Source of the DNA: Mucisphaera calidilacus
GTDB taxonomy: Bacteria; Planctomycetota; Phycisphaerae; Phycisphaerales; Phycisphaeraceae
DNA length: 32,000 bases
Direction: 5' to 3'
Assembly: GCF_007748075.1 (NCBI RefSeq)
Contig: NZ_CP036280.1
Location: forward strand, 3,360,001 to 3,392,000
Shown: one piece after another, positions 11,208-31,200 of the stretch
Position numbering within the stretch: position 1 is the stretch's first letter
Layout of the letters: each line of letters starts with the position of its first letter
Made by a program: the position numbers and the translations under genes
The notes under the pieces: model-generated
Database searches by the model: none
Told to the model about the DNA's origin: nothing
The model's input: only the letters and a program-made list of their open reading frames with translations

Positions 11208-11558
11208 TCAGCCGTTGTTTCCGCCACCCTGCTGGCGTTTACGCGGGTCGATCTCGATGGTGCCGTAGGCCTGCTCGTAGCGTGTCACGGCCTGGCCGAG
11301 GGCCATGGCGAGTCGCTTGGCGGACCAGGGGCTCATGATGACGCGGGCGTCGATCTTCATGGTGGCCTGTCCCTGCCCGGAGGGCTGGATGCCACGGGAG
11401 ATGTCGACGACGATCTCTTCGGCCGTGCCCGAGACGCGGGCGGTCGAGGCGTAGTAGAACGGCGTGTCACTCTCGTCGATGCGGAGTTGCATCTGCTGCT
11501 GGCCCTGCTCGGGCGCTGCGACGGTCTCGTTCTGTTCGGGGGTCTCAGCCACGGGCAA
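11208..11558 (-). CDS. DUF3467 domain-containing protein
   Basis: ...FYYASTARVSGTAEEIVVDI...KIDARVIMSPWSAKRLAMALGQAVTRYEQAYGTIEI matches my recollection of the DUF3467 consensus. The track start (TTG 11558) is probably too early. GTG at 11552 has AGGA 7 nt upstream. Confidence 0.65.
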   Translation of the reverse strand: MPVAETPEQNETVAAPEQGQQQMQLRIDESDTPFYYASTARVSGTAEEIVVDISRGIQPSGQGQATMKIDARVIMSPWSAKRLAMALGQAVTRYEQAYGTIEIDPRKRQQGGGNNG

Positions 11559-11616
11559 TTCCTTTACACAAGAGGTTGCTGTCTGATCACGATGCGATCG
11601 GCCGCTCGGGGTCCGA

Positions 11617-13812
11617 TCAGATCCACCAATCGAGCGTCAGGGCCTGGCGGACGCGTCGCCACTGCTGAGGCCCGAAGCGCGTCCGGCCGACTTCGACCCG
11701 CGCCCGCCCGGTCATGCCATCGACCCACCAACGCGATGTTTCGTCAGCGGCGTCCAGCTCGATCCAGGCCAGCACCGACGGCCGACTGGGTTCGCCTTTA
11801 TACGGGTCACTCGGATTGGTGTCTACCTCTCCGCCGTGGGCCGTGTTGAGCGCGCGGTGCGGCACGGTGGCCATCACGCCGCGTTCGACGGCGGCCACGC
11901 GACCGGTGATCTCTTCCCAGGGCATGGACCAGAGGCGCATGCGGGCCGTGTGCCCGGGCTGGACGAGGGCTGCGTCGTCCTGGGGCACGACGAGCGCGAC
12001 GCGGGGCGCCTCGGAGCTGACGAGCATGCCCAGCGCCTGGCCGCGTGACACGCGCACGCCGAGCATGCCCTGCAGGCGTGTCCCGGCCATGACCCGGCCG
12101 GCCATGGTCGCCCGGATGATGAGCTTCTCGATCTGGGACTCGCCCAGCGCGATCTGCTCGCGGATCTGGTCTTTCTTGATCTCGGCTGCGGTGGCGTCGG
12201 TCAGCTCGCCGCGTTGTCGGAAGAGGGCAGCCTCGACCTCGAGGATGGAGAGTTCCACGCGGAGTTCCGCGACGCGGTCTTCCAGCCGTCGGTTGGAGAG
12301 GCGGACGATCGGTTCGCCGGCCTCGGCGAAGGAGCCGGTCTCGACGTAGACCTCGGCGAGTTCGCCATCGACGCGCGCGTAGATCGGCTGGTGGCGCTCG
12401 GCGAGCACCACGCCGGGGTGAAGGACGGTCTCGGTGACGGGGAAGAACCAGACCGTGCCGGCGATCAGCAGCGCCAGGCCGGCGACGACGGCGGACCAGG
12501 CGAGACGCACGCCGGACTGCGTCTGGATCGACCAGACGTGTTTCAGGCCCTTGTAGAGGGGCATGAGGATCATGGTCGTGAGCGCGAACATGCCCAGCAG
12601 GGCGCCCACGGCCTGCAGCCCGACGCCGTCGAGCAGGTGCCAGGCGATCAGCGTGATGCTGATGAGGACCATGGTGCGGTACGCACCGGCGGCGAGCGCG
12701 TAGCCCATGAAGAACCGTGGCATGCGCTCGGCCTCGTCCGGCTCCGGCTCGGTCGGCTCGACGCGGAGTGCCCAGAGGTCGAAGCGCTGCCCGAGGTACT
12801 TGATCGCCTTGGTCTGGAGGTTGGGCACCTCGACCCAGTCCATGAGGAAGTAGTAACCGTCGTAGCGGAGCAGCGGGTTGGCGTTAAAGAGAATCGAGGT
12901 CACGCTGGCCGAGAGCATGGTGTTGAAGGCGAGCTGGTTGACCCAGCCCGGCTCGGTGGCGATCCAGACCCAGACGGCAACCGAGGCGAAGAGCATCTCG
13001 ATGAAGACGCCGCCCGCGGTGATCCACAGGCGATCGCGTTTGTCGGGGAGCGTCCAGGCGTCGGAGGTGTCGACGTAGAACAGCGGGAGGAAGACCATGA
13101 GCATGACGCCGGTCTCGTGCACCTCGAGGCCGTGATGGTGCGCCGCGATGCCGTGGCCGATCTCGTGGATCACCTTGATCGTCAGGAAGACGGCGGTGAA
13201 GAGCAGGGCGTTGGTCCAGCTGAGCACGGGGAAGGCGAGCTGGCTGACGCCCTGGAGGTTCGCCAGCGCCACGGCGGCCGAGAGCGTCATCCACAGTACG
13301 GCGAAAATCATCATCGGCCGGGTCATGAACAAGCCGACGTAACGGTAGAGCCAGACGAGGAACGCCTCGGGGTCGAACAGCGGGATCTTGATGAACAGGA
13401 AGCTGCGTAGCTTGGCGGCGCGCATCTTCTTGCGGCGGGTGTCACGGATGCCGCGGATGCGTTTGGCCGAGTCCTTGTCGGTCGGGAGCAGCAGGCCCGC
13501 GCCGAGCAGCTGCATCGCGAAGGCCTGGATCTCTTCGGCGGACAGCTCGGTCTCGGGGAACCGCTCTGCCGCGAGCCGCTCGATCTCCGAGGCGGTCTTG
13601 TGGCCGTCGAGTTGTCGGTAGACGTAGTACTCGGCGGGCCTGAGCCGGAAGTAGGTGAGGCCCACGGGGTCCTTCACGACGTAGACGCTCTGGCCGTGAT
13701 AAAGCTGTGGCGAGATCAGCAGGTCGGCCCGTGCCGGCGGCAGGGGGTTCTCGCGCTGGCCGCCGCCGCCCCCGCCCGCTGCTCGTGCCCGTGGCTTGTA
13801 GGGATTCACCAT
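11617..13812 (-). CDS. fusion protein: PqqD-like (RRE-type) N-domain + M50 (site-2 protease-like) zinc metalloprotease membrane core + HlyD-like periplasmic adaptor C-domain
   Basis: aa ~31-110 (FRLRPAEYYVYRQLDGHKTASEIERLAAERFPE...FAMQLLGAGLL) parallels PqqD (..LVDG......I...L.ERFPE..). HEIGH lies at 13153-13167 and the second M50 motif NPLLRYDG at 12856-12879, among multiple TM helices. The C-terminal ~270 aa have a lipoyl-like hairpin (IYARVDGELAEVYVETGSFAEAGEPIVRL), a coiled coil, and IRATMAGRV plus a barrel. Confidence 0.8.
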   Translation of the reverse strand: MVNPYKPRARAAGGGGGGQRENPLPPARADLLISPQLYHGQSVYVVKDPVGLTYFRLRPAEYYVYRQLDGHKTASEIERLAAERFPETELSAEEIQAFAMQLLGAGLLLPTDKDSAKRIRGIRDTRRKKMRAAKLRSFLFIKIPLFDPEAFLVWLYRYVGLFMTRPMMIFAVLWMTLSAAVALANLQGVSQLAFPVLSWTNALLFTAVFLTIKVIHEIGHGIAAHHHGLEVHETGVMLMVFLPLFYVDTSDAWTLPDKRDRLWITAGGVFIEMLFASVAVWVWIATEPGWVNQLAFNTMLSASVTSILFNANPLLRYDGYYFLMDWVEVPNLQTKAIKYLGQRFDLWALRVEPTEPEPDEAERMPRFFMGYALAAGAYRTMVLISITLIAWHLLDGVGLQAVGALLGMFALTTMILMPLYKGLKHVWSIQTQSGVRLAWSAVVAGLALLIAGTVWFFPVTETVLHPGVVLAERHQPIYARVDGELAEVYVETGSFAEAGEPIVRLSNRRLEDRVAELRVELSILEVEAALFRQRGELTDATAAEIKKDQIREQIALGESQIEKLIIRATMAGRVMAGTRLQGMLGVRVSRGQALGMLVSSEAPRVALVVPQDDAALVQPGHTARMRLWSMPWEEITGRVAAVERGVMATVPHRALNTAHGGEVDTNPSDPYKGEPSRPSVLAWIELDAADETSRWWVDGMTGRARVEVGRTRFGPQQWRRVRQALTLDWWI

Positions 13813-13822
13813 GAGCGTCGGC

Positions 13823-15751
13823 CTAGAAGAGCGTCATCCGGACGTAGTGCCAGGCGTGGCGGAACAGACGCCAGCCAAGCGGGGCGTAGCCAAGGTCGAG
13901 TCGTGCCCGGCCGGTCGGTTCCGAGAGCGCCAGGTGCGGCTCGAGGCCGTCGAGACTGATGCCGGTGCGGAGCTCGTAACGCATCTGGCCGGTCGCGGGG
14001 TCGGGCACGCTGGAGGGCGAGAGGGTCAGCAGGCTCTCGTAGGTCACCCGCTGCTCGAGATCGGGCCAAGGCCGGCTCAGGAACGTCGCCCGGACGGGCT
14101 GTCCGGCCGTGAGCCGTGTCTGCACGAGGCCGACGTCCTGCTCGGGCACCTCGACCACCAGCTCGAAGCCGGAGAGGTCGCCGATGCTCAGCAGTTCCTT
14201 GGCCTGATCGACGGTGGTGCCCTCTAGTTCTTCGGGCCGCGTGCTGAGCACGACGCCTGAGATCGGGCTGCGGATCGCGGAGCGCTCGATGCGTCGCGAG
14301 AGCGAGGCCTCCTGGATGCGGAGCTGCTCGATGCGGAGGTCGGCGAGCATCATCTCGCCGGGGCGTTGCTGGGTGCGTGCGTCGCGGCGGGCCAGCTCCT
14401 GCTCGCGGATCGCGGAGCGCGTCAGCGCGCGTTCGGCGCGGACATCGGTGGTGTCGAGTTCGAGGATGACCTCGCCCTGCTCGACGGCCTGCCCGGCCTG
14501 AACGAGCACGCGTTCGACGGTGCCCGGGTAGGGCGTGGTGAGGGTGTGCAGCACGCGGGGCTCGAGCCGAGCGTCGACGCGCACCGCCATCGGGAAGGGC
14601 AGGATCATCGCCAGGAGCAGAGCGAGCAGCGCCATCATCAGCGCGCCGGACCGCCAGGCCGCCCGCCTCGGGTTGGTCCTGGCCTGCGCGAGGGTCTGGC
14701 CCAGGCGTCGCAGCGGCCGGGCTTCGAGCTCGATGGCACGCGCCAGGAAGGGGCCGACGCTCTCGGCCAGCTCGACCTCGCCGGGCGCGAGTTTACTGGC
14801 TTCGACGGCCTCGGCGTGCTCGACGATCAGGACCGCCGGCGTGCGTTCGTCTTCGGTGATTGGCGTGACGCAGACCGCCTGAGCCCCGCCCAGCTCGAAG
14901 AGCTGATCGACAAAGGGTTGGAGCTCGACGGCGTCGCCCTCGAGCACCTGCCCCTTCTGGAAGGCCATCGGCTGGCCGGAGGCACGCGTGGCATCGGCGA
15001 GGGTGCGGACGGCTTGGGCGAGGTTGGCCTTGGGGTTGGGATCAAGGGTGTCGGAGAACCACGCCTCGGGCTTCGAGCCCCAGAAACCGACGACGGCGGC
15101 CCGCTGGGCGTGGAAGAGCTGCCGCGCACCCTGAGCGAGTTCGTGGGCCAGGTCGCTCGGCTTCTCGATCCGGCCGAGGTTCTGCAGGAGCGTGAGCAGG
15201 GCGCGGTAGTGCGACGCGGAGCGTTCCACCAGTTCCGACTGGCGGTGGCCCATATGCCGCCCCATGGCCTCGGCGGCCTGCTGGCAGAAGGCGACGTACT
15301 CGCGGTAGAGCTTGGGGTCGAGCTCGCCGCTGCAGATCACCTGCAGGATGCCAAGCCGCTTGCGCCCGCTGCTGATCGCGAGGTAGAACTGCACGCCTCG
15401 GGTCAGGCCGTCGGGACCGTCCTGCATCTCGCCGGGCGGGACGACGACCGCCTGAGCCGGATCGTTCCAGGTCTTGCGCAGGGCGTTGGCCACGACGCCG
15501 ATCGGCGCGTGCTGCTCGTCGAGGACGCCTCGGGCCAGATCCCCCTCCATGGCGATGCCGCGGTAGGCCCTGCCGAGCGTGTCGGCGGCCAGCCAGACGA
15601 GTCCCGACTCGGCACGCATGGTCTCGACGACGACGTGGAGCACCTCCCGGGCCACCTCGGTGGGAGCGCGATCGGTGGCACGCGACAGTCGCTCGAACTG
15701 TTCGAGCGCCTGCTGGACGGCCTGCCGGGCTTGTGCGGTGAGATCCTGCAT
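13823..15751 (-). CDS. GAF-GAF sensor domains + single TM + HlyD-family periplasmic adaptor
   Basis: There are two GAF-like regions (...ESGLVWLAAD...FYLAISSGRKRLGILQVICSGELD...; ...AAVVGFWG...AVCVTPITEDERTPAVLIVEH...). These are followed by a TM helix (GALMMALLALLLAMILPFPM) and adaptor motifs (YPGTVERVLVQAGQAVEQGEVILELD, coiled coil, IRSPISGVVLS, barrel). Its stop lies 10 nt upstream of the next gene's start. Confidence 0.75.
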   Translation of the reverse strand: MQDLTAQARQAVQQALEQFERLSRATDRAPTEVAREVLHVVVETMRAESGLVWLAADTLGRAYRGIAMEGDLARGVLDEQHAPIGVVANALRKTWNDPAQAVVVPPGEMQDGPDGLTRGVQFYLAISSGRKRLGILQVICSGELDPKLYREYVAFCQQAAEAMGRHMGHRQSELVERSASHYRALLTLLQNLGRIEKPSDLAHELAQGARQLFHAQRAAVVGFWGSKPEAWFSDTLDPNPKANLAQAVRTLADATRASGQPMAFQKGQVLEGDAVELQPFVDQLFELGGAQAVCVTPITEDERTPAVLIVEHAEAVEASKLAPGEVELAESVGPFLARAIELEARPLRRLGQTLAQARTNPRRAAWRSGALMMALLALLLAMILPFPMAVRVDARLEPRVLHTLTTPYPGTVERVLVQAGQAVEQGEVILELDTTDVRAERALTRSAIREQELARRDARTQQRPGEMMLADLRIEQLRIQEASLSRRIERSAIRSPISGVVLSTRPEELEGTTVDQAKELLSIGDLSGFELVVEVPEQDVGLVQTRLTAGQPVRATFLSRPWPDLEQRVTYESLLTLSPSSVPDPATGQMRYELRTGISLDGLEPHLALSEPTGRARLDLGYAPLGWRLFRHAWHYVRMTLF

Positions 15752-15776
15752 TGCAGCGTTCGGTGTCGGCCGGACT

Positions 15777-15797
15777 TGAGTGATCTATGTTCACTCA
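15777..15797. promoter_or_regulatory. 7+7 bp palindrome TGAGTGA-n7-TCACTCA (operator or 5'-UTR hairpin candidate)
   Basis: Perfect inverted repeat read directly, 15777-15783 and 15791-15797, located 26-46 nt upstream of the ATG of the GAF-HlyD gene. Chance occurrence in a region this size is not negligible. Confidence 0.25.
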
Positions 15798-15813
15798 GGC
15801 GATCCGACAGAAT

Positions 15814-15842
15814 AGTTGAACCGACCTCAACCCCGCTGTCAA
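15814..15842 (-). promoter_or_regulatory. candidate sigma70-like promoter for the minus-strand operon
   Basis: On the minus strand: TTGACA (plus coordinates 15837-15842), a 17-nt spacer, then TCAACT (15814-15819). The -10 element is weak and planctomycete promoter rules are poorly known. Confidence 0.2.
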
Positions 15843-15970
15843 TCTCGTTTTTTTCTCCCGGCGGGGGTGAACGCGCATCAACGGCTTTATCCTTACAGTG
15901 ACCTGACAGAATGTGTGGTCGGAACTGTCCAGATCGCTTCCCCAACGCGCGCTCACAAGGCCCCTCAATC

Positions 15971-15999
15971 TTGACACCCACACTGAAGCGCGTTTAGCT
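15971..15999 (+). promoter_or_regulatory. candidate sigma70-like promoter for the giant gene
   Basis: TTGACA at 15971-15976, a 17-nt spacer, then TTAGCT at 15994-15999 (poor -10). This would give a ~210-nt leader. Confidence 0.18.
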
Positions 16000-16215
16000 T
16001 TCACTGTTGACCCGATCGTGTCCGTTATGGTCGTTTGAGTGATAGGGGCGTGATTTGCGTAGTGCCGCCCTCCCGCATGGGATCAACCGCCCGAGCCATC
16101 CTTCTCCTTACTCATCCTCCCTCAACGCGCCCACGATGCATAGGTCTCCGGAGACGGATGGAACGTTACACAGCCTCACAAACCGTGGCCTGACAGCAGA
16201 CTGAAAGGTGTGTCC

Positions 16216-19200
16216 GTGTTCTCACGCAAAAAGCGACGTACAGCGATGAAGAAACGGTCGAGCAAGCAGCAGCAGGCGAAGCAGCCGGCGCGCAAGAAGA
16301 GCAGGCTCCAGCTCGAAGCCCTCGAGCCTCGTGTCCTGCTCACGACGCTCTTCGGCGGCGACACCTTTGTCTACACCGACGCCAACGACAACAACGTCGA
16401 GGTGCAGATCGAGGGCGACGTCATCGTCGAACTCATCGCGGCCCAGTACAACCCCGCCATCGACGGCTTCGAGATCGGCAACCTGCCCGGCCTGCTGCTG
16501 GCCGACGGCGGCGGGCTCAACTCCCCGATCATCGGACGCACCAGCTCCTCCATCACCGTCTTCAACGACGACGGGGCCGCGGTCAACAACGTCTACGGCG
16601 CGATCAACGGCGGGCTCAACGGCACCATCGGCTCCACCTTCTGGACCGACATCAGCTCGTTCATCATCCCCGACACCATCACCGGGGTCACGGTGCCCGA
16701 GGACGACGCGCTCGAGTACCAGTCGATCGCCACCAACGCGGCGGGCGACACCTACGGCTTCCTGGTCCTGCCGCGCACCTACGTCGATGCCAACGGCGAG
16801 GAGTTCGAACAGAACGAGATCTTCGTGGTCAGGCTCGACTCCACCGAGGGGGGCACGACCCACGAGCTGATCGCCTCGTTGTCCAATCTGCAGGGGGGGC
16901 TGGGCTCCGGCGGCCCCGACGCGATCGGGCCGCTCTACAACCTCGAACTCGATGCCGATACCAACGCCGCCGACTGGGAGCCGCTGGTCCGCGCCGCCGA
17001 CTTCAACCCCGGCGACGGCCTGCTCTACTTCGTCGTCGAGGCCGAGGACCCCACCATCGGCTCGCCGATCGACAAGCTCTTCGCCTACGACGTCGAGAAC
17101 GACGTCACGTTCCCCGTCGTGGACCTCGAAGGATCACCCGCCGATCCCGCCGACCCCGCGCCGCTCTTCCCGCCCAGCGAGGAACAGTTCATCTCGTCCA
17201 TGGCCTTCGAGGTCACCGGACAGGAAGACGGCAACAACACCTACCGCATGGTCTTCTGGATCGACGTCGACGACGAGGAGATCGGCGGCCAGCTCGCCTG
17301 GGTTGACGTGACCGAGGACCCGACCGACGACCTGCGGAACACCATCGCTACGCAGGCCTCGGACAGCGCCAACTTCAGCTTCTCGGGGGCGCTCGTCGAC
17401 CCCGCCACGGTGCGCGAGGACGACCCCACGAACATCACCGGCGTCACCGGCATCGAGTTCTTCGGCGACAACACCCTCAACACCGAGCAGTTCCTCTACA
17501 TCGTCGACGGCGACAACGCGCTGCTCTACCAGGTCGACATGACCGACACCAGCCAGGTCCGGACGATGGGCGTCACGACCGACGGCGACCCCGACGAGCC
17601 GAACGGCGAGAACCTCGCCGGCATGGCCTACGACGCCAACACGCTCAACCCCTTTACCGGCACGCCCGGCGTCTTCTTCGCCACGGACACCGAGACGGAC
17701 AACCTGGTCATCCTCGACCACCGCTTCCGGCCCTCCACCGAGGCGGGCGCCGGTGCCGATCTCTTCATGATCTACGTCACCAAGGGTGACTCGGAGAACG
17801 GGCGCATCCGCATCGCGATGCGTAACGACGACATCTTCGTGACCGGCAACGAGGACCCCCGCAGCCTGACGCCTTACGGCGGCGAGGCGTACGAGTGGTC
17901 GGCGGCGCTGACCGACGGGACGCCGACCATCACGCCCCCCGGCGGCTCGGGCGGCGTGCTCATCGGTGCCGTCGATGATCCGGACAGTGACATCCCCGTC
18001 AACGTTCTCGACCCCGTTTACGTCGGCAACCTCCCCGAGGGCCGCAACGAAGTCCCCGACTTCGTCACCTACCCCTACCTCTTCGACACCCACGTCAACC
18101 TCAACCAGGGCACGCCCGAGGACGAGGGCCCCGACGTCGCGCCGGGCGTTCAGATCTCCGCGTCGCTCTGGGACTACTACTCGGGGTCGCTGCTCGGCTC
18201 GCTGATGGGCAACAACATCGACGTCGTGACCGAGGCCGCCATCAGCGCCGACGGCACGCGTCTGGCGCTCATCGACTCGGACGGCGTCGACGCGCTCGGA
18301 CGCACCGTCGACGAGAACGGCGACTTCATCGGCGACGAGCTGTTCGTCTTCAACCTCAGCACGCTGCAGCTCGAGCAGTCGACACGCATCTTCTCCAACG
18401 CCTCTGGCTCACGCGCCACGCTCAGCAACATCCAGGGCCTGGACTTCGGCGACTTCGACTCCGACGGCGTCGACGAGCTGTACGCCATCTACAACGCCGG
18501 CGGCAGCGCCAGCGTCGGCGTCCTGCAGGTCGGGTCGAACGGCCTGTTCACCGGCGAGTTCATCGCCAACGCGGCCATCAGCCGCGCGCCCGGCAGCCCG
18601 CCCGCCACCAACACCGCGCCCGCCGCCGACGACATCCGCATCACCCTGCGCGACGGCACCAACATCGACGTCGACCTCGACCAGCTGCCCGACCTGACCA
18701 CCGTCACCCTCCAGCAGCTCATCGACGTCATCAACGACGATCCCGACAACCTCGCCAACCCCGACGCGAACATCGGCGGCAAGCTCCTCGAGGTCCGTGG
18801 CAACAACACGCTGCTCTCCGACTTCAAGGTGGGCAACTTCACCCACCTCGAGTTCATCGACCGCAGCAGCCTCTTCTACATGATCGACAACGGCAGCTCC
18901 ACGCTCGCCAGCGCACTCGGCCTCGACAAGGTCGACGGCTCCGACCGCATCAACGAGAACCAGCTGCCCGACGGCACCCTCAGCGCCGGCCTCGCCTTCG
19001 AAGACATCTACGCCCGCCTGCACGACGACACCGTGCTCCACGACATCCAGGACGCCCAGGGCGAATCCCTCTTCACCGCCGCGGGCGTCAACACGCTCCT
19101 GAGCAACGGCGCGGGCGTTGTTGACTTCACCATCGAGACGCGCGACGGCAACACCTTCGAGGTCGATCTCGACGGCGCCGCCTTTGCGGCCCTCGACGAC

Positions 19201-22200
19201 ACCAGCACCCTCGACGACTTCATCACCGCACTCGGCACGGTGCAGGACACGACCGCCACAACCGACATCGCGACCGCGCTCAACTTTGCTGTCACCGGCC
19301 GGCTGCAGATCACCGATACCACCGTCTTCGACGACAACAGCATCTTCCGGGTCGTGATCGCCAACGACAGCACCGCGATGGCGCTGCTCGGCCTGACGTC
19401 GACCAACGCCGAGGACTCCACGGGATCGACAACCCGTATCGACGGCAACACCGTCGACAACATCACCGGCAACCTCGCCATCAGCCTTGATACCCCGATC
19501 GACGCCCTGCTCGACCGCAACCTCAATCCGGTCGATGTCACCGACGCCGACATCACCCTCAAGGGTCAGGACGGCGCGCCGCAGAACTACACCTTTGTCG
19601 CGGGCAACACGCTCCAGACCATCATCGACGATCTCGCGCCGGACGACTTCACGCTGAACATCGCGCCGGGCACCGCGGTAACCCTCGACGACGGCAACGC
19701 CGCCGGCACCACCATGCAGCTCAGCGACCAGGCCGGCTCGAGCTTCTTCAGCCAGCTCTTCTTCGGGACCAACGAGACCGGCACCGCGGCGATCGACGAC
19801 GACAGCGCTCCCGACGTCGCCGGCAGCAACCCGGGCATCATCCGCCCCGACGATTTCTTCTCCACCGGCCAGACGATCACGCCCGCCGCGCAGCTCAGCG
19901 CGATCTGGGCCAGCGAGATCACGGGACGCGTGCAGGCCTTCGCGATCGACCCGATCACCCAGCACGGCTTCGCCATCGACGACGGCTCGGTCGACGGCAC
20001 GTCGCTGATCGAGTTCAACCTCATCACCGGCGCCGCGATCCGTTCGGGCCTGCTCCCCGATCAGCTCGACGGCGCGGACACCACCGCACGCTTCGGCACG
20101 ATGGACTTCACCAGCGACGGCAACCTGCGCGCTCACGACGTCGCCACCGGCAGCCTGATCACCATCGACACCACGAATTTCCGCAGCGGCCTGCTCTCCG
20201 CCGCGAACATCCCCTTCACGGGCAACCAGCGGATCGCGATCGACCTCCAGGACGGCACGACCGACTTCTTCGTCGACCTCACCGGAGCGAACGACTTCCA
20301 GGGCATCATCAACCGCATCCAGTCGGCGACCAACGGCAACGTCTCGGTCACGCTCGGCGGGGCCAACTCGCTCATCCTCACCGACAACACCGCGGGCGGC
20401 GGCACCTTCGCCATCCGCAACGCCGCCGGCACCAATGCGGCGACGCTGCTGGGCATCAACACCGTGGACAACGGCGGCGGCGACCTGCGAGCCGACGTCG
20501 GCATCATCCAGGGCCAGCCCAACTTCACCGCGGTCAACATCGACCCGACCCTGAGCACCGTCTCGGGCAGCATCGGGCCGGACATCGGCGCGATCACGTT
20601 CAACAACGCCACCAGCGAGTTCCTCGGGCTGAACAACGCCCTGAGTGTCCACCGCCTGCTGAACGAGGCGGGTTCCAACGAGTCGGCGGCGCTCGTCCGC
20701 CTGGCCGGGTTCGAGGCCGGCGACGCCGAGGGCCAGGACCTCCGCGACCTGTTCATCGGCGGCACGCTCACCGGCGTCTTCTACGGCACCGGTTCGATCG
20801 AGACCCTCTACGTCGGCTGGGCGATCACCGGCGACGCCACCGGCAAGAACACCGGCCTGTTCACCAACACACTCGATCACGACTTCATCCTGCTCGGCGA
20901 CGTGCGCGACCTGATCTTCTCCTCCTCCGTGGGCGGCTCCGACGCGCTGGAGACCACCTTCAACGTCACGCCGCTGCTCACGACCGGCACCGACATCTCG
21001 GTCGGCGGGACCATCGGGCGGCTCATGGTCGCGCGTCCGGGCTCCGGCCTCTACGCCGACGTCACCGTGCTCAACCCCGTTGAGTTCAACGACGGCATCG
21101 ACTACGACGACCTGCCCTACTCCGAGATCGAGGGCAACAACGACCCGAACATCACCGACCGCATCACCCAGAAGTGGTCGCTGCCCGAGATCGAGCCCTA
21201 CGCCACGCTCTACGCCGGCGACGGCCGCTTCTCCAACGACAGCTTCGAGACGGCCGAGCCGCTCGGGGCACTGCGCAACGGCGGCATCGACGGCTCCGAG
21301 GCCCTGACGGTCCGCGGCACGCTCTATTCCGGGATCAACGACGACGACCACGTCGACTACTACAGCCTCGGCCTGCTCGCCGGGCAGACCATCACACTCG
21401 ACCTGGTGCCGGTTCTCGACATCGACTTCAACCCCTTCCGCGTCGGCATCTTCGACCCGGACGGCCGACTCGTCGCCACCAACTACGCGCACGTTGACAA
21501 GGTGCGCAAGGCCAGCGACTTCTTCGAGTTCACCGCCGACATCCCCGGCGAGTACCGCTTTGCTGTCGGCGTCTTCACGAACCCGCTCTTCGAGGACGGC
21601 GGCGACACGATCACCGCTGAGTACAACCTCGACATCTTCGGCGTCGGCAACATGGGCCTCGGCGGCGTCGTCGCGACCAACATCGCCAACAACATCATCA
21701 GCGTCGCGCAGGGCGACATCGGTGCGGTCCGCGCCGACACCAACCAGATCGCCAACGTCGGCTTCCTGGCCGGCCGCAACATCCGCTCGATCGACGCGGC
21801 CGACGACATCGGCTACCGCGAGGGCGAAGACATTGTTGATTTCAGCATCATCGTCCAGGCCGGAGGCGACGTCGGCCTGATCCGCCAGCAGTTGGGCATC
21901 GGCGAGGGCACCATGCAGATCGGCAGCCTGTTCGCGGGCGGCGACGTCCAGATGATCGAGGCCGGCGGCATCTTCATCGGCAACCTCTCGATCGACGGCG
22001 GCCTCGGCGTCCTCCGGGCCGGTGGCATCAACGGCAGCGACACGGCCGGCGGCGACTACGAGGGCCCGATCAGCAACATCCGGGTCAACGCCGACAACTC
22101 GCTCGACGGCGACGGCATCATCGACCTGATCGACGTCGCGGGCGACCTCGGATCGAGCGCCCAGGCCCCGAACAACACCGTCGTCATCGGCGGCCCCTCC

Positions 22201-25200
22201 ATCAGCACCGGGCCCGACGGCAACGTGCGCTATATGCGCGTCGGCGGCCTGATCTACCAGAACAACGACTTCGGCGCCGGCCAGTTCGGCGAGTTCCGGC
22301 TCGACGCCGGCGAGGGCGCCACGATCGTCGACGACAGCGGCGCGACCGTGCGCATCGCACCGGTCGACACCGGCGAGGTCGTGACCAACGAGGACGGCAC
22401 AACCCCCGACGAGGACGACCCCGTCGCCTTCCTGACCTACCGAACCTTCGCGATCGCCGACGGCGGCTCGGTGCTCGTCGACATCCACTCCTCCGGCGGC
22501 GTCTCGATCGTCGGCAACAGCCTCGGCACGGGGGCCCCGGTCGAGATCGGCGCCATCTACGCCAACGGCCAGGGACGCGCCGTCACGATTAACGAGGAAG
22601 AGGGCTTCGCCGAACTGCCCGAGCTCGAGGTCTTCGAGGAAGAGATCGACCTCTACGTCAGCATCGGGGGCGGCCACAACAACCCCGTCCACGTCTACTA
22701 CGTCGGCACCGATGGCGACGACAACGGCACCTCCGAGACGCGCGGCCAGTTCAGCGCCATCACCAACAACACCGGCGGCGAGATCGTCAACATCGAGGCC
22801 GCCACCATCGGCACCCTCAGCGTCGACGGCGTCGTCGGCTACGGCCTCAGCTACGCCACCGACTCGGCGGTCCGCGGCTTCCTTCTCACGCAGGACATCA
22901 TCGCGAATGAGAACATCGCCACGGTCGTCACCGCGCCGCGCACCGGTGTTGTCTCGGGCAGCATCGAGAACGTCCGCACCGACACGGCACTGGGCAACTT
23001 CTTCGTCTCCGGCATCGTCACCAGCGTCCGCGCCGACGCCGACGGCATCGACGACCCCAACCTCTTCGAGGGCGTCAACGGCGCGTTCATCGTCATCGAC
23101 GATTCCGGGCTCGAGATCCTCAACGGCAACATCTTCAGCTTCGACGTGGGCGAGGGCATCTCAAGCTCGGGCTCCGGACAGTTCGCCGAGGCAGGCATCT
23201 TCGCCATCGGACGCATCGACGGCGGCTCCCTGATCATCGGCACGGGGGCCATCGGCTCGATCACCGGCCGCGACGCGGCGATCTACGGCGACATCTACGC
23301 CGACATCTCCATCCAAAACATCAGCCTCACCGGCGATTCGGTCATCAGCGGCGGCGACATCCTCGTGACCGCCGGTTCGGCTGCGACGCTCCAGCTGCTG
23401 GACCCTCTTGTCCTTATCGACGGCGGCCTGGCCAGCGGCCTGAGCATCAACGACCCCGACCCGGACGCCGTCGCGCTTGGCGAGCGGCAGCGTGTCGGCC
23501 TGAACAACATCAACGTCAATGGCACCGGCGGCATCATCGGTGCCTTCATCGGCGGCCCGCTGATCGGCAACATCACCGTCAACAACGGCTTCGGCATCTT
23601 CAACTCCGTCGTCGCCTCCCCCGGCACCGAGGGGACCATCAACAACCTCAACATCGACGGCTACGGCCTCCGCGGCACCTACGTCACCAGCAAGGGCGAC
23701 ATCAACAACATCCTCGTCAACGGCCGCGGCGAGCAGCTCGCCGTCACCGACTTCTCCGTCCACGCACGCTCCAGCGAGTCCGTTGGCGTCGATCCCGCCA
23801 CCGGCATCGCCTTCGACCCCGCCACCGGCCTGCCCATCGACCGCTACAACGACCTGCACCGGTTCCTCGGCACCGACGCGACCACACCCGGGACCAGCGA
23901 CCTCGACAACGCGGGCGTGATCGACAGCGCGGTCATCCAGACCGCCGGCAACCTCACCGGGCAGATCCGGGCTTACCAGATCGCCTCCACCTATGACCCC
24001 TCCGACGAGCACCCCTTCAACGACCAGATCCTCTCGGACACCCTCGGCAACGCCCTGCCCGCCTACACCTACATCAACGTCGCCGGCAAGCTCAACAAGC
24101 TCATCCTGACGAGCACCGCCGCAAACCTCCAGGATCATCACAACATCAACACGGTCGCCGGCCAGTCGCTCGGTATCGACCCGTTCACCTCGCTGCCCAC
24201 GGAGCTGGCCGACGTCTCCATCGCCGGCCTCTCGATCACCGCGGGCGAGCTGGGGACCTTCACGCCGGGCGCCAACGTGGTCGGCCTCGACCTCACCGTC
24301 GACGGCCTGATCCGCAACCTCAACTTCAAGGGCGACCTGCTCTCGCTCACCGAGCTGGATCCCATCCTGACCTCCTCCATCGAGGCCAGGGGACCGGGCG
24401 GGCAGATCACCAACCTCACCGTCGCAGGCGACATGCAGGCCGATATCTTCGCCACCAACTACATCAACCGTGTGACGATCGATGGCGACCTCACGGGCAC
24501 CATCACGGTGCTCCGCGGCGACCTGCGCGGCCGCGGGCTGGGCACGCTGACCCTCGGCGGCGACCTGATCGACGGCGGGCTCGATATCGAGGGCGACGTC
24601 AACGCCATCCGCATCGACGGCAGCGTCGGCAACCCGCGCAACGCGTTCGACGAGATCGCCGACCAGCTGCTGATCACCGGCAACCTGGGCACCTTCCAGT
24701 CCGGCCAGCGCGTCGACGGCGCCAACATGGCCCTGGACCTGGTGGTCCTGGGCGACATGCGCACCCTCGACGTCTCGGGCATGTTCACCGGCGAGCTGTT
24801 CGTCGGCGGAGACCTGGGCAGCTTCCGCGTCGCGGCCGACGCCGTCACCCGCGGCACCACGATCATCGGTTCCGAGTTCGGCGACGTCGACGTCAACGTC
24901 AGCGGGACGATCGGCTCGGTCACCGTCAGCAACGGCCACGTCGGCGACGGCGAACTGGACACCAACAACGACGCGGTCCTCGAACGCGTGCGCATCAACG
25001 CCGGAGAGGGCATTCGCAATTTCTCGGTCACCAACGGCAGCGTGCTCGCCGACGCCCAGGTCGCGTCGGCGCTCGGCGACATCAACGCCATCACCGTCCG
25101 CGGCGGCGACTTCCACGGACGCGTCGACGCCAACGCCGGCACCGTCAGGAACCTGCGCCTCTCCGGGTCCGACTTCGGCGGCTCCCTCAACGCGCTCGAG

Positions 25201-28200
25201 CTGTCGAGCTTCACCATCGACGGCTCGCTGCTCACCGGCGCCACGATCGACGTGGACGAGGCGGGCCGGATCTCTATCGGGCAGGACATCCAGGCCGGCG
25301 TCGTGGTCACGCTCGGCTCCGCGCAGTCGCTCACCGTCCGCAACGACCTCAACGGCACCCTCCTCGTCGAGGGCACGAGCAGCAGGCTCAACCTCACCGT
25401 CAGCAACGACGTCACCGGGCAGGTGTTCCTCGGCGCCGACGCGAACATCCGGATCGGCGGCGACCTCGACTCCAGCACGCCCATCACCGTCGACACGACG
25501 CTCGCCGAGCTGGGCATCGTCGGCTCGCCCGGCTCCTCCATCGAGGTCCAGCTCCGCGACGGGACCGCCCCGCGCGTCGTCGACCTCACCGGTGTGTCCA
25601 CCATCGCGGAGCTCAAGGCCGCCATCGAGGCCGAGGTGCCCTTCGTCATCGTCAGCATCGACGACGACCAGGAGGCCATCCGGCTCACCGACGAGTCGCC
25701 CGACAACGGCGCGACCTTCTCCGTCACCGACCTCGGCAACGGCACGATCGCCCGCACGCTCGGCTTCAACACCGCCGACGGCGGGGCCGGCGACCGCGAC
25801 AACAACGCCAACGGCACCATCGAGGGCGCGCCCATCGGCTTCGGGCTTGTCCAGGGCACCTCGCTCGAAGACCTCGGCGCCGACATCGCTCCCGACAGCG
25901 ACCTGCGCTTCACGCTCAGCGACGGCTCGAGCCTCTCCGTCTCGCTCGCCGGTGCCGAGTCCCTCCAGGACATCATCGACGCCATCAACGCCGTCAGCAT
26001 CAACCTCACCGCGGGTCTCGACCCCACCGGCACGGCGCTCCAGGTCACAGACGCGACCGGCAACGGCCTGCAGATCCAGAACGGCGTCGACTCGCGCATG
26101 GCCGAGCGGCTCGGCCTGCTCGCCACCGACGGCGCGCTCGGCGACAACGACGGCGCGCTCGACGGCACCATCACCGGCTCCCGCCTCAGCGGGGCGCTGC
26201 TCTACATCGACGGCGACGCGAGCAACCTCAGCATCGACAGCGTCAACGGCGGCGTCTTCGTGACCGGCGAGCTCAGGAGCCTCAACGCCAACAGCATCGA
26301 CGCCTCCGTCATCGTCACGGGACAGGACCTCGGCAGGATCAACGTCCGCAACGACATCAGCAACACCCTTGTCCAGGCCGGACTCCTGCCCACGGCCAGC
26401 ATCGAGCAGGTCGCGCTGCAGATCCGACAGGACCTGCCCGGGCAGGCGGTCGTCCTCTACAACCCGGTCGACGGCACCGACGCCAGCCGCGGCGAGATCG
26501 GCAGCCTCAGCGCCGTCAACCTCACCGAGTCCGTCATCGCGGCGGGCGGCGAGTTCGGCACCCTCCGCCTCAGGGGCGGCATGACCGACAGCTCTGTCTC
26601 CTCCGGCATCGTGTTCGGCGTCACCGCCGTCAACGACGCCGCTCGTGACGCCACCACCCTCGGCACCGCCGCCGAACGCAACGACGCTCGCGGCACCGCG
26701 GGCGACCGCGTCCTCACCCAGGGCGACTTCGGCAGCGCCACCATCTCCGGCAGCGTCGCCACCAGCGCCATCACTGCCGGCATCGACCCGGGCGACGACG
26801 GCATCTTCGACGCCAACGCCACCAGCCTCGTCGGCGCACCCGCCGCCAACGACAGCAATATCTACAGCTCCACCACCGGCGGCCAGAGCGCGATCGGCAC
26901 CCTCAACGCCGGAGCCTGGGACGGCGCATCCCTCGGCCTCTCCGACGGGCCCATCAGCAGGACCAACCTCCCCGGCGGGCAGCAGGGCATCTTCGACTAC
27001 ACCATCGAAGCCATCGACGGCGCGGCCGGCAGCCCCGTCGCGGCCCTGCCCGTTACCGTCATCGCACCCAACGCCGACGGCACCATTACCGTCCCCGGCG
27101 CGACCGGCTCGCTCATCGTCCGGCCCGCGGGCGGCGCGACCGTCGTGGTCTACGACGACAACGCCGCCGACGACACCATCGACGCCATTGTCATCACCGG
27201 CGGCGCCCGCAACGCCAGCCTGACCATCACCGGCGACGGCGCGAACGACCCCGCCGACTGGGCCATCGAACGCATCCTCGCCGACGACGACGCCTCGCTC
27301 GCCACCCTCCGGTTCGACGGGCTGCTCACCGGCGACGACGCCACGGGCACCGTCGACCTCTGGCTCGAGTCAGGCCTCAGCACGCTCGTGCTCGGCGGGT
27401 TCGCCGAGACCACCGCCAACGGGCTCACCGGCCGTATCGCCGGCGACATCCGCACCGCCGACCTCGGCACCGTCGGCGGCGGCAACCTGACCATCGGCGG
27501 CGAGGTGAGCAGGCTCACCCTCGGCGGCAGCGAGAACTCGCCGGTCCTCGGCAACGCGGCCGAGTCCGCCTCGCCGGGCATCACCGAGATCACCTTCACC
27601 AACACCGGCCTGTTCTATTCCTTCGACGGTAACACTGGCCTCTTCCAGTCCAGCGACACCACCGACGTCGCCACCTTCGCCATCGCCGACAACGGACCGA
27701 GCACCATCGCCGCCGACCTCGGCATCGCGGGCACCGACGGCGCCGCGGGCGACACCGACAACACCGACAACAACGCGATCCTCGGCACGCAGCTCTCCGC
27801 CGACCCCATCACCCTCGACACCACCCTCGCCGACCTGGGCATCGACCCCACCGGCGGCAACGTCGACTTCGCCTTCCGCGACGGCAACACGGCCACCATC
27901 GACCTCTCCGCGGCCACCACGCTCCGCGACGTCGCCAGCATCCTCACCGCCGATTCCGAGGGACGCCTCTACACCACCCTCACCGACGACGGCGAGCTGC
28001 GCATCGTCGAGACCAGCACCACCACACGCGTCAGCATCGACGACACCCTCGCGTCGGGCGTCGAGATCAACCCCGGCGAAACACTCACGATCAGCCTCCG
28101 CGACGGCGGCGACGACCTCACCATCAATCTCTCCAACGTCTACACGCTGCAGGACCTCATCGACGCGGTCAACACCCAGTCCTTCCGCTTCTTCACCGAC

Positions 28201-31200
28201 CTCGGCGGAACGCCCTACCGCGACGCCGAGGGCAACCGCGTCCTCGACACCACCACCGGGCCGCTCGTCACCGCACGCATCAACGACGAGGGCAACGGCC
28301 TGGTCTTCGAAGACCAGACCGCGGGCGGCAACACCTTCCAGATCAACGTCGACGATCCTGACTCCGACCTCATCACCATCTTCGGACTCGACGCCACCGA
28401 CGGCGGCGTCGGCGAGGGCGCCTCCGACGGCAACCTCATGACCGGCAGCATCCTCCTGACCGAGGCGATCAAGACCGACCTCCGCGACGTGCTCGGCAGC
28501 GCCGCCGGCAACACCTTCGACCCGACCAACACCCTGCGCCTGAGCATCGACCTCCGCGACGGCTCCAACGGCGTCATCGTCGACCTCACCGGGCTCAGCA
28601 CCTTCGAGGACGTCGCTCAGGCCATCTACGACCAGACCGACCAACGCGTCACCCTCGTCACCGCGGGCGGCGCACGCATGGTCGCGATCGACAACTCCAC
28701 CGACAACGGCGGGACCTTCGCCATCGCCGATGCCGTCGGCGACCTCGCCGAGAAGCTCGGCATCGCCGCCGTCGACGACGGGGCCGACCCCAACGACCAG
28801 GACGGCGCCCCGAACGGACGCATCCTCGGACGCGGACTCGTCACCCTTGAGACGCAGCTCAGCGTCTTGGGCGTCGCGGTCAACGGCGACGAGGTCCTCA
28901 GCTTCGACCTCGCCGGGGCCGACCCCGCACGCACCGGCTTCACCGTCAACCTCGTCAACTTCACCGTCAACACCGTCGGCGACCTCATCAACGCCATCGA
29001 GACCGTCGCCGGCAATTTCCCCGTGGTCGGCAACGGCCTCACGGTCGAGATCGTCAACACCGACTTCGACGGCAGCTACCTCGTTGTTTCCGACAACGGC
29101 GGCTCCTCGGCACTCCGCATCACCGACGTCGAAGGCACCATCGCACAAGACCTCGGCATCAGCGGCTTCGACGGCGGCCCGACCGACGACGACGGCGCAG
29201 CCGACGGCACCTTCTCGTCCATCAACCTCTTCATCCGCACCGCGACCCTCGCCGACTCCAGCGTCAGCTTCGCCGGCGACCAGGTCCTCGACCTCGCCCT
29301 CGACGGCGGCGTCGCAACCGCCACCCTCTCCGACGTCGACACGCTCGCGGGCGTCATCAACGCCTTCGAGGCCGACGACAACGTCCGCGCCGGCTTCGAC
29401 GGGCTCGGACGACTCGTCCTTATCGACACCACAGGCGACGGCGGCTTCACCATCACCCAGACCAGCGGCGACGCGGCCGTCGCGCTCGGCCTGCTCCCGA
29501 CCGATGGTCTCGCGGGTGTCGCCGACGGCGTCATCAACACCCTGCCCATCACCCCCGTCGTCACCGAGAACACCTCGTTGCTCGGCGGCCTGGGCATCAA
29601 CTTCCAGGACGAGCTGGCCATCACCGTCCAGCTACGCGACTCGAGCGTCTTCAGCATCGACCTCTCCGAGGCACGCACCGCCGAGCAGGTCCTCGACGCT
29701 ATCAGCCGCGCAACCTCCGGTCTCGTCTCCGCCGAGTTCGGCGCCGGCGGACGCATCATCCTCACCGACAGCTCGATCGGCGCCGCCAGCTTCTCCATCA
29801 GCGACACCTCGGGCGTCATCGCACAGCGCCTGGGTATCGCAGCCACCGACGGCCTGGTTAATGACGTCGACGGCGTAGTCGACGGCGTGATCCTCGGGCG
29901 GTCCATTATCCAGACCTCCACACGCCTGAGCATGCTCGGCATCGACCCCGCCAACGGCATCGTCGACGTCGACTACCGCGACGGCACCAGCAGCACCATC
30001 GACCTCTCCGGAGCACGGTCCGTCGCCGACGTCGCCGCCACCCTGGCCGCCGATTCCTCCGGCAGGCTCTCCGTCACCATCACCACCGACGGCAGGCTGC
30101 TCGTCACCGACGGCTCCAGCGGAGGCGGAACCTTCGCCATCGCCGACAACAATATCTTCAGCACCATCGCCCGGGACCTCGGCATCGACCAGACCGACGA
30201 CGGCAGCGACAACGACGGCGTCGCCAACAAGCAGATCCTTGGCAACCGCCTGATCGCCTCGCAGGCGACCCTGCCCGCGGCACTCGGCGCCGGCCAGACC
30301 CTCCGGCTCAACCTCCAGAGCGGGGCCACCGTCGACGTCGACCTGTCCAACGCCAACACCTTTGGCGAGATCATCCACAAGATCAACATCGACGCCGCCG
30401 GCCTCGTCTCAGCACGGCTCGCTTCCGACGCGCGGCTCGTGATCACCGACCTCACCGCCGGCGGCAACGTCTTCTCCATCGCCGATCAGGCCGGCACGCC
30501 CGCCACGACCCTCGGCATCGCCGCGACCGACGGCGGCGCAGGCGACCAGGACGGCGAACTCGCCGCCGACGGAACCATCAAGGGCACCAGCCTCTACGGC
30601 GACAACGCGGCGGCCGTCAACCTCTTCGACCTCGGTATCAGCTTCGTGGCCGGTGACGCCTTCACCATCACCACCGCCGACAACGTCACCACCGTCATCA
30701 ACGTCGCGGCCGCCACCACCCTCGACGACCTCATCACCGCCATCGAGACCGCCCCCAACGTCTCGGTCACCGTCGGACTCGACGGCGGGCTCAACGTCGA
30801 AGACACCTCCGGCGGTGCGACCGTACCCTTCCGCATCTACACCGACGCCGGACAGAGCAGCAACGCCCTCGAACAAATCGGCCTCGAAGCCTCCGACGGC
30901 GGCGCGGGCGATCTCGACGGCTCCTCCGACAACACCATCACCGGAACCAGCATCGTCACCGCCGCCACACGCATGTCGCTCCTGGGCATCGCCGCCACCG
31001 GCGCCGAAGAACTCGTCCTCACCCTCCACGACGGCTCCACCCGTGTCGTCGACCTCACCGACACCACGACCATCGGCGAGGTCATCGAGGCGATCCAGAC
31101 CCAGACCGCCAACGACGTCACCGTCGTCATCGACCAGGCCGGGCGACTCCTGCTCACCGACACCACCGCCGACGCCGGCGGCGCCTTCACCATCAACAAC

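Follow-up and report, generated by a model that had tools for sequence, protein, structure and literature searches.

In the planctomycete Mucisphaera calidilacus, two adjacent genes, here termed A and B, lie in a 32,000-nucleotide (nt) stretch of contig NZ_CP036280.1 (positions 3,360,001 to 3,392,000 of the forward strand), which was analyzed as a whole and is termed the window. Judged from sequence, their products probably form the inner-membrane and periplasmic core of an exporter that works without an ATP-binding cassette (ABC) transporter, depends on a TolC-family channel, and recognizes and trims giant proteins that carry a LEPR-XLL motif near their N-terminus; the probability of this reading is put at roughly 0.6. 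Gene A encodes a protein with GAF domains, one transmembrane (TM) helix and a HlyD-type adaptor, and gene B encodes an RRE/PqqD-like domain followed by an M50 metalloprotease core and a second HlyD-type adaptor. The module itself is already known in silico. Kamneva, Poudel & Ward (2015, PLoS One, PMC4452313) described it as a GAF-HlyD protein, a weak-M50-HlyD protein, a short HlyD/biotin-lipoyl protein and a truncated secondary SecA. What is new here is the link to LEPR-XLL substrates and their leader, the PqqD/RRE domain, and the DUF3467 component.

The candidate substrate is encoded next to gene A. The plus-strand frame from 16144 to 31998 is free of stop codons and continues past the window end, and both GC and AT skew change sign at about 16 kb, consistent with a giant gene on the plus strand. 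The first-pass annotation of the window had treated the minus-strand open reading frames (ORFs) upstream of gene A as genes, and it missed both this likely substrate and the DUF3467 gene. The long minus-strand ORFs at 16222-25116 and beyond (e.g., 18409-22692, 1,427 amino acids (aa), and 23161-25116, 651 aa) are instead Gly/Asp/Val/Ala-rich shadow frames of the giant gene. In relatives (loci L081, L082 and L002 of the survey described below), a giant LEPR-XLL gene likewise adjoins A, and giant orthologues of 7,030 and 6,793 aa occupy the same position. A homologue search with the first 1,200 aa as query gave no match.

The giant protein contains 0 Cys, 0.5% Lys, 0.5% Met, 10.6% Asp and 12.8% Gly. 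No Pfam domain was found in 5,000 aa, and there is no hydrophobic signal peptide. Lacking cysteine and a signal peptide, and being acidic, the predicted protein looks like one that is secreted in a single step. One GGxGxD match occurs in the 5,251 aa within the window, the C-terminus lying beyond it. The N-terminus reads MKKRSSKQQQAKQPARKKSRLQLEALEPRVLLTTLFGG, in which a basic stretch precedes the LEPR-XLL motif LQLEALEPRVLL (LEALEPRVLL). Against the LEPR-XLL model NF012209, this N-terminus scores 16.3 bits (cut-off 17; E 0.0055; model positions 1-12 of 24), while the giant protein of a Thalassospira plasmid scores 30.5 bits. After the motif, the planctomycete form continues with TTLFGG and the proteobacterial form with S/F-A-D.

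The link between such proteins and the module was followed on plasmids. A tblastn search of plasmids with gene B gave 68 records (E. coli, Citrobacter, Azospirillum, rhizobia, Burkholderia and others), of which ten annotated loci were inspected. At nine of these proteobacterial loci, a co-directional giant gene encoding 3,302-10,603 aa abuts the module (gene orders are given in the table below); the tenth is cut by the start of the record. All of the module-adjacent giant proteins examined begin with a basic N-terminal stretch followed by LEPR-XLL or a close variant, as in EALEPRLLLSADF, DTLEPRVLLNADV, LALEPRVVYDASV and FALESRQLFDGAA from the plasmid loci, and two of the plasmid giants carry the PGAP name “LEPR-XLL domain-containing protein”. 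In the Alisedimentitalea giant (L098, NZ_CP123586, near 183224), the basic stretch and the motif are found in frame upstream of the annotated start (VVEQLEPRLLLAADF), and in the Azospirillum giant (L100, near 527) the basic stretch alone lies upstream and the motif begins at the annotated start. Both starts therefore appear to be annotated too far downstream.

The same plasmids supply components that the window does not hold. TolC is encoded in cis at six of the ten loci. A truncated SecA-like gene, confirmed by Pfam, is present at four and is annotated as “DEAD/DEAH box helicase”, “prepilin peptidase” or “preprotein translocase subunit SecA”. On four proteobacterial plasmids, DUF3467 separates the giant gene from the module, whose facing gene is A or, in Mesorhizobium, the short HlyD adaptor, termed X. 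Neither an ABC transporter within the module nor a SecY-like gene was found at the ten annotated loci. The Thalassospira giant protein contains 18 RTX stretches, which are typical of proteins that pass unfolded through TolC. Four loci, termed type 2 (L095, E. coli; L100, Azospirillum; L105, Eleftheria; L106, Burkholderia), have a short A of about 440-480 aa in which no GAF domain was detected, and these always include TolC and X. Type 2 giants often have DUF4347 after the leader. Among complete E. coli genomes, the module occurs in 24 of 5,426 and is mostly plasmid-borne; NZ_CP081687 and NZ_CP030920 are two E. coli plasmid examples, in which a giant Ig-like protein is followed by TolC, X, A and B.

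A reverse test started from the substrate. A scan of metagenomes in which the N-terminal 150 aa of the giant protein served as query gave 12 loci, and 10 of these have a co-directional DUF3467 gene 300-700 nt upstream of the giant gene. In one further locus, adaptor X takes the place of DUF3467 upstream of the giant gene. The order SecA-like, DUF3467, giant gene is seen in the two fully flanked metagenome loci (L086 and L094) and in L092. The SecA-like protein has 664 aa with SecA_DEAD, PP-binding and P-loop domains, and the linked SecA-like proteins fall below every SecA and SecA2 cut-off in NCBIfam. As far as gene linkage goes, DUF3467 ties both the SecA paralogue and the giant genes to the module across phyla. 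It is likely to be a further component of the system, possibly a chaperone or targeting factor.

The domain structure of gene B is well conserved. The HEIGH motif is invariant in 60 planctomycete and 13 cross-phylum homologues, and N310, P313, D318 and Y320 are invariant across phyla in the alignment of 13 homologues. The Peptidase_M50 match is barely over the Pfam gathering score (27.5 bits, cut-off 27.2), and HlyD_D23 matches at E 3e-10. The C-terminal part resembles MacA, MexA, AcrA and EmrA both by Foldseek (E 1e-13) and by hidden Markov model (HMM) search against Protein Data Bank (PDB) sequences (E 3e-20). A lower-confidence loop in the adaptor beta-barrel (residues 650-690, ~11743-11865) holds an LxxxxGGE/P motif, in which G661 is invariant across phyla. 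Hundreds of full-length homologues of 700-760 aa are found across Planctomycetota, and a genome scan gave at least 600 genome matches. The RRE-M50 core alone has 3,343 cluster representatives (50% identity) at E<=1e-30 by phmmer, and most of the best 150 of these are 700-760 aa long, the length of the fused form.

The PqqD-like domain of gene B, which the first-pass annotation had proposed, falls below the Pfam threshold (PF05402, 20.9 bits, cut-off 23.4; E 4.6e-4). The assignment is nevertheless upheld, because residues 32-104 adopt the beta3-alpha3 RRE/PqqD fold in the structure model (predicted local distance difference test (pLDDT) 90.3), homologues have precomputed PF05402 matches, and proteobacterial homologues are titled “PqqD family” by PGAP. 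Across phyla, the RRE has two invariant residues, R28 and D48, and two that are near-invariant, G40 and R56. This conservation parallels that of the leader motif, and would fit a fixed ligand such as the LEPR-XLL leader. The RRE-M50 part resembles the daptide leader peptidase model NF041824 over residues 47-422 (~375 residues; E 2e-46; 158.8 bits, cut-off 300) and, more distantly, the YydH/LiaK epipeptide model NF058609 (E 1e-10; 41.6 bits, cut-off 225).

In gene A, the second GAF domain is matched by PF01590 (E 1.4e-7; 32.6 bits, cut-off 22.4), and the adaptor part is matched by HlyD_D23 at residues 400-571 (E 3e-15) as well as by HlyD_3 and Biotin_lipoyl_2. The TM helix has a Kyte-Doolittle score of 2.42 in a 19-residue window and lies inside the helix predicted at 361-383 in the model. 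Of the two GAF-like domains claimed at first, this leaves the N-terminal one, for which there is no Pfam signal and which hhalign does not find to be similar to the second. The fold does support it: the AlphaFold2 model of gene A (pLDDT 74.8) has a 390-column match to the tandem-GAF structure of PDE5A (3lfv_A, E 2.5e-9, Foldseek), so that this N-terminal GAF-like domain is supported at the level of the predicted structure. The same model matches MacA and AcrA at E 3e-12. An 831-aa GAF + HlyD protein (P0128) from a metagenome-assembled genome of the Terriglobales (Acidobacteriota) places the A-type architecture outside the phyla listed in the 2015 paper.

The other observations of the first-pass annotation on this gene pair are confirmed, and its interpretation is supported in part. 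Both genes are on the minus strand with 10 nt between them, and the positions reported for HEIGH and NPLLRYDG are exact by sequence and arithmetic. The M50, HlyD-adaptor and GAF assignments correspond to Pfam matches above cut-off (barely so for M50), with both adaptors also recovered by Foldseek and that of B by the PDB HMM search. The products of A and B are 100% identical to M. calidilacus entries at NCBI, both of which are titled “efflux RND transporter periplasmic adaptor subunit”, where RND stands for resistance-nodulation-division.

Conservation of the pair was assessed by all-against-all ORF clustering of 80 related loci plus the window (81 loci), with gene order counted in the 57 loci that have at least 4 kb upstream of B. 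An A-family gene lies upstream of B in 53 of the 57, confirming that the pair is conserved. X, a short HlyD adaptor of ~300-320 aa with a signal peptide (Pfam-checked), is found in 46 of the 57. The order A-X-B occurs in 42 loci and A-B without X in 7, among them the window; in L001 and L002, X is divergent from A. No further conserved gene family surrounds the module in the 81 loci. DUF3467 is near the module in 16 of the 81 loci and directly adjacent in 10 of these 16. It precedes A as the first gene in 6 loci; in the window, L001, L002 and L047 it comes after B. Isosphaeraceae have DUF3467 and a LEPR-like gene (~1,400 aa) as a pair that directly follows B and is convergent to it. With the L086 protein as tblastn query, a SecA-like gene is found to abut the module in L047, L011, L018 and L063, and in L024 it lies at the locus edge, beyond the pair of DUF3467 and giant gene.

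Ordinary export pumps are not part of this neighborhood. RND, ABC and major facilitator superfamily (MFS) transporters form no shared ORF cluster in the 81 loci, ABC-ATPase-like ORFs (Walker A + LSGGQ) occur within 10 kb in 4 of 81, and a TolC-like gene was found in 1 of 81 by tblastn, a search of low sensitivity. The rare exceptions are a 701-aa ABC-ATPase-like ORF 0.9 kb downstream of B in L054 (3300-5402, minus strand) and a TolC-like stretch 1.2 kb downstream of B in L068 (Thalassoglobus neptunius, 13427-14062). No conserved small precursor ORF was found around the 81 loci, where shadow frames of DUF3467 and infA alone turned up. From this survey of ABC, TolC and small ORFs, the absence of a linked pump is concluded to be a true family-wide feature in Planctomycetota.

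The first-pass annotation had called the pair an orphan with neither pump nor outer-membrane factor. No ABC, MFS or outer-membrane factor gene is present in the operon or in the 32-kb window, and the only RND pump in the window comes with an adaptor gene of its own and is encoded on the opposite strand. The description holds locally but not elsewhere, given TolC on 6 of 10 plasmids, X in 46 of 57 loci, and a truncated SecA in cis. Nor is the pair a piece of a standard type I locus with ABC transporter and TolC, as ABC-like ORFs are confined to 4 of 81 loci and are missing from the 10 plasmid modules.

The candidate motor deserves separate attention. The truncated SecA has ~650 aa compared to ~800-1,100 positions in the matched NCBIfam SecA models, and at least ~150 C-terminal residues are missing. 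In canonical SecA, the C-terminal part contacts SecY. A truncated SecA without the SecY-contacting part could plausibly dock onto another membrane partner. This SecA-like ATPase is the obvious candidate energizer of the system.

These components suggest a sequence of events. A giant protein, as observed for the one in the window, is synthesized with no hydrophobic signal of the Sec type. The RRE of B would bind its N-terminal leader in the cytoplasm, possibly after a hand-over by DUF3467, and a truncated SecA paralogue, encoded in the locus in other genomes and not in the window, would then thread the protein at the expense of ATP. The polytopic M50 domain of B and the TM anchor of A may together form the passage through the inner membrane, in which the zinc site would remove the leader. 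The adaptors of A and B, joined by X in most genomes, would form a periplasmic conduit to a TolC-family channel, as their homology and gene linkage suggest, and the tandem GAF domains of A may couple activity to a cytoplasmic ligand. The first-pass annotation had likewise proposed that the M50 protein is the partner, in the inner membrane, to a mixed set of adaptors under regulation by GAF domains. This fits the conserved gene set; M50 as a pore had already been proposed in 2015 (PMC4452313). Its suggested cleave-and-hand-over role may also apply, being compatible with the RRE domain and the intact active site.

A broader proposal is more tentative and is considered somewhat less probable than its negation. 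It holds that the module defines a distinct secretion pathway of diderm bacteria, ranging from Planctomycetota to E. coli plasmids, in which the LEPR-XLL leader is read by the RRE and cut by the M50 protease, and the substrate is driven by the truncated SecA, chaperoned by DUF3467 and conducted to TolC by a tube of mixed adaptors, without an ABC transporter. This would amount to a new type of secretion system with a defined signal.

Several observations weigh against the exporter reading. SecA-like, X and TolC are not in the 32-kb window: the window contains no X-family ORF, and tblastn with the L086 SecA-like protein gave no match in it. The type 2 loci lack SecA-like, DUF3467 and a GAF-bearing A, so they offer no ATPase candidate. 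The linkage to LEPR-XLL proteins raised in the first-pass annotation is seen at 9 of 10 plasmid loci, but a LEPR-like N-terminus lies within 10 kb in only ~13 of 81 planctomycete loci, a raw count that comes without a genome-wide background rate. Some LEPR-XLL giants, for example in Vibrio (PMC10868602), have the C-terminal RTX or serralysin-type ends typical of classical type I substrates. The RLS motif, RxxxLxxxxxxS/T at the hairpin tip of periplasmic adaptors, binds TolC (PMC3391258). In none of the three families (A, X and B) is it conserved at any position of the alignment; gene A of the window alone has REQELARRDART near the hairpin tip. The M50 core is very remote from the solved site-2 protease structure 3b4r (E 0.096, HMM against PDB). 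Finally, each functional step is proposed from gene linkage and homology.

The main rival explanation is a switch between release and retention, in which the giant protein would be exported by another, unlinked system (an ABC type I secretion system or Sec) and B would only cut its N-terminal LEPR-XLL anchor under GAF control, thereby releasing or activating it, in the way that LapD/LapG act on LapA. The GAF sensor domains on A and the intact active site of B would suit such a switch, and so would the type 2 loci with no ATPase and the fact that RTX-type giants, like that of Thalassospira, are usually ABC type I substrates (PMC10868602). However, two or three adaptor paralogues with TolC in cis amount to a full periplasmic conduit, which would be needless for a release protease; 77 of the 81 loci have no linked ABC exporter; and the locus also encodes a SecA paralogue that has a preprotein-binding domain. 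A release switch is unlikely, if still the strongest competitor. Much less probable is the maturation and export of a small ribosomally made and post-translationally modified peptide (RiPP) or bacteriocin-like peptide, with the RRE binding a precursor, the M50 protease removing its leader and the adaptors exporting it. The closest named RRE-M50 relatives are indeed the daptide (NF041824) and YydH/LiaK leader peptidases, and EpeP is thought both to cleave and to export. Against this, the scores lie far under the family cut-offs, no conserved small ORF or modifying enzyme was found in the 81 loci, the distribution is conserved phylum-wide and not patchy as for a biosynthetic gene cluster, and the consistent neighbor is a giant protein. 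The RiPP reading was dropped for want of a conserved small precursor ORF.

Regulated intramembrane proteolysis of the RseP/SpoIVFB type, in which B would cleave a regulator and the HlyD-like domains would serve as periplasmic sensors or inhibitors, is at least as improbable as the peptide reading. It would account for the M50 motifs, and the topology of A (cytoplasmic domain, TM helix, periplasmic domain) resembles that of anti-sigma factors. Yet Pfam finds no PDZ or CBS domains in gene B, no sigma or anti-sigma gene is among the shared ORF clusters of the 81 loci or adjoins the module at the 10 plasmid loci, and the adaptors are bona fide MacA/AcrA-like proteins with hairpins and have TolC in cis elsewhere. 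Scarcely credible is the idea that A and B are surplus adaptors serving an ordinary efflux pump, whether the RND pump nearby or a different one, as their NCBI names and the distance of 3.3 kb to the RND pump might suggest. That pump has its own adaptor on the opposite strand to A and B, no RND, ABC or MFS cluster is shared among the 81 loci and ABC-like ORFs are limited to 4, and the M50/RRE and GAF fusions are conserved. The pump's own adaptor and the unconserved linkage led to the rejection of this role.

Relative to the module of Kamneva et al., the window locus is a reduced, dispersed instance, and the architecture and central idea of the first-pass annotation are an independent rediscovery. 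The two share the GAF + HlyD/biotin-lipoyl protein, the polytopic weak-M50 + HlyD protein and the phyla in which they occur (Planctomycetes and others). They differ in that the window holds two of the four core genes, the short HlyD and SecA-like genes being absent from the 32 kb. In the 2015 study, OEP/TolC was sometimes adjacent to the module, and its parts could be encoded elsewhere in the genome. Its authors proposed an ATPase role for the truncated SecA, an inner-membrane pore formed by the M50 protein in place of the ABC transporter, and a regulatory role for GAF; neither a substrate nor a PqqD/RRE domain nor DUF3467 is mentioned in the paper (PMC4452313). No functional or follow-up study of the module, DUF3467, DUF4347 or LEPR-XLL was found in the literature. 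The earlier statement that this architecture lacks experimental characterization is thus borne out, although the architecture had been described in silico (PMC4452313).

The proposed exporter can also be compared to better known systems. Classical type I secretion systems (HlyB-HlyD-TolC; LapA/LapBCE) share with it the alpha-hairpin adaptors, the TolC-family channel as far as Proteobacteria encode it in cis, and giant acidic Cys-free substrates without a Sec signal, often bearing RTX repeats. In contrast to them, the module has no ABC transporter and has two or three adaptor paralogues, one fused to M50 and one to GAF. In addition, the classical signal is C-terminal, whereas the conserved, putative recognition motif of the module is N-terminal, and the candidate motor is a truncated SecA. 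The RRE-M50 leader peptidases of RiPP pathways (NF041824; YydH/EpeP/LiaK NF058609) share the layout of B, with a PqqD-like RRE at the N-terminus and an HExxH intramembrane protease after it. Unlike them, B is below the family cut-offs and fused to an adaptor, and it is accompanied by a neighboring protein of 3,000-10,000 aa in place of precursor and tailoring genes. A precedent is EpeP, an M50 protease to which cleavage as well as export has been ascribed (PMC10885120).

The accessory Sec system of Gram-positive bacteria (SecA2/SecY2) likewise reserves a second SecA for adhesin-like proteins of very large size whose N-terminal leaders are unusual. The SecA of the module differs in being truncated to ~650 aa and below cut-off, there is no SecY2 or Asp, and the system is a diderm one with TolC and adaptors. 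Site-2 proteases (RseP, SpoIVFB, mjS2P) have the HExxH + NPxxxxDG zinc site in a polytopic membrane core in common with B, but the similarity is very remote, and B has no PDZ or CBS domain and no link to a sigma-factor pathway.

For the largest bacterial proteins, adhesin-like giants of 5,000-10,000 aa, classical ABC type I systems are the only export route that is understood. The module is abundant in several phyla and occurs on plasmids of E. coli, Citrobacter, Burkholderia and rhizobia. The LEPR-XLL tag and the named neighboring substrates turn a conserved locus known for ten years into a testable hypothesis in a tractable host. If the hypothesis is correct, functions would be assigned to DUF3467, the truncated SecA paralogues and the LEPR-XLL motif. 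The comparison also corrects widespread misannotation as “efflux RND adaptor”, “DEAD/DEAH box helicase” and “prepilin peptidase”. In RefSeq, A and B are misnamed “efflux RND transporter periplasmic adaptor subunit” or “biotin/lipoyl-binding protein”, and truncated SecA proteins misnamed “prepilin peptidase” or “DEAD/DEAH box helicase” are found in L099 (17171-19087), L103 (16106-18091) and L104 (16135-18096).

Table 1. Features of the window, with positions counted from its first nucleotide, and gene orders at the proteobacterial plasmid loci.
Feature	Position	Strand	Description	Evidence
Gene A	13823..15751	-	642 aa; cytoplasmic tandem GAF, one TM helix, periplasmic HlyD-type adaptor	
Gene A, N-terminal GAF-like domain	15317..15679	-	residues ~25-145	fold only: secondary-structure pattern, Foldseek
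Gene A, second GAF domain	14732..15157	-	residues 199-340	Pfam PF01590
Gene A, single TM helix	14582..14638	-	residues 372-390	hydropathy
Gene A, periplasmic adaptor	13877..14554	-	lipoyl halves, alpha-hairpin 435-489, beta-barrel	Pfam, Foldseek
Gene B	11617..13812	-	731 aa; PqqD-like RRE, polytopic M50 metalloprotease, HlyD-type adaptor	
Gene B, RRE/PqqD-like winged-helix domain	13501..13719	-	residues 32-104	model fold, PqqD, cross-phylum alignment
Gene B, membrane-embedded M50 core	12427..13335	-	residues ~160-462, ~8 helices	Pfam M50, NCBIfam, hydropathy, model
Gene B, HEIGH motif	13153..13167	-	zinc-binding and catalytic; residues 216-220 (H216, E217, H220)	sequence
Gene B, NPLLRYDG motif	12856..12879	-	residues 312-319 (third zinc ligand D318)	sequence
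Gene B, periplasmic adaptor	11635..12420	-	alpha-hairpin 508-562, beta-barrel, conserved GGE loop near G661	Foldseek, HMM against PDB
DUF3467 gene	11208..11558	-	116 aa, soluble; next after gene B	Pfam E 1.8e-16
Divergent intergenic region	15752..16245	.	common to the A-B-DUF3467 unit and the giant gene	
Giant LEPR-XLL protein gene	16246..32000	+	>5,251 aa, runs past window end; candidate substrate	
LEPR-XLL motif	16306..16341	+	residues 21-32; basic stretch before it	sequence, NCBIfam
Thalassospira plasmid			LEPR-XLL protein (4,033 aa), DUF3467, A, B, X, TolC	
Pontibrevibacter plasmid			LEPR-XLL protein (10,603 aa), DUF3467, A, B, SecA-like, X	
Mesorhizobium plasmid			giant (10,518 aa), DUF3467, X, A, B, SecA-like	
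Methylosinus plasmid			giant (8,847 aa), DUF3467, A, B, SecA-like, X, TolC	
Alisedimentitalea plasmid			giant (8,148 aa), A, B, SecA-like	
E. coli plasmid			giant (4,459 aa), TolC, X, A, B	
Azospirillum plasmid			giant (3,399 aa), TolC, X, A, B	
Burkholderia plasmid			giant (3,302 aa), TolC, X, A, B	
Eleftheria plasmid			TolC, X, giant (3,718 aa), A, B	

The start of the DUF3467 gene is ambiguous (11545-11560, minus strand). The listed TTG abuts AAGGAA, a GTG two codons on has better spacing, and an ATG (MQLRIDES) lies 22 codons 3′ of the listed TTG, near where conservation among homologues starts. A DUF3467 profile gave no match to PDB sequences, and A, B and DUF3467 gave none to the PADLOC defense models. 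No sigma-70-like consensus was seen in the intergenic region at 15752-16245. Downstream of DUF3467 (9197-11202, minus strand), an S13 D-Ala-D-Ala carboxypeptidase gene begins 5 nt past its stop codon, and a GNAT acetyltransferase gene overlaps the S13 end by 4 nt. These two genes are possibly co-transcribed with A-B-DUF3467; a functional link is doubtful, since the synteny is confined to the close relatives L081 and L082. The sole RND pump of the window (4976-8308, plus strand, 1,110 aa) lies 3.3 kb away with its own adaptor (3657-4979, 440 aa). It has no outer-membrane factor gene beside it, and in L081 and L082 a LysR regulator adjoins the pump.

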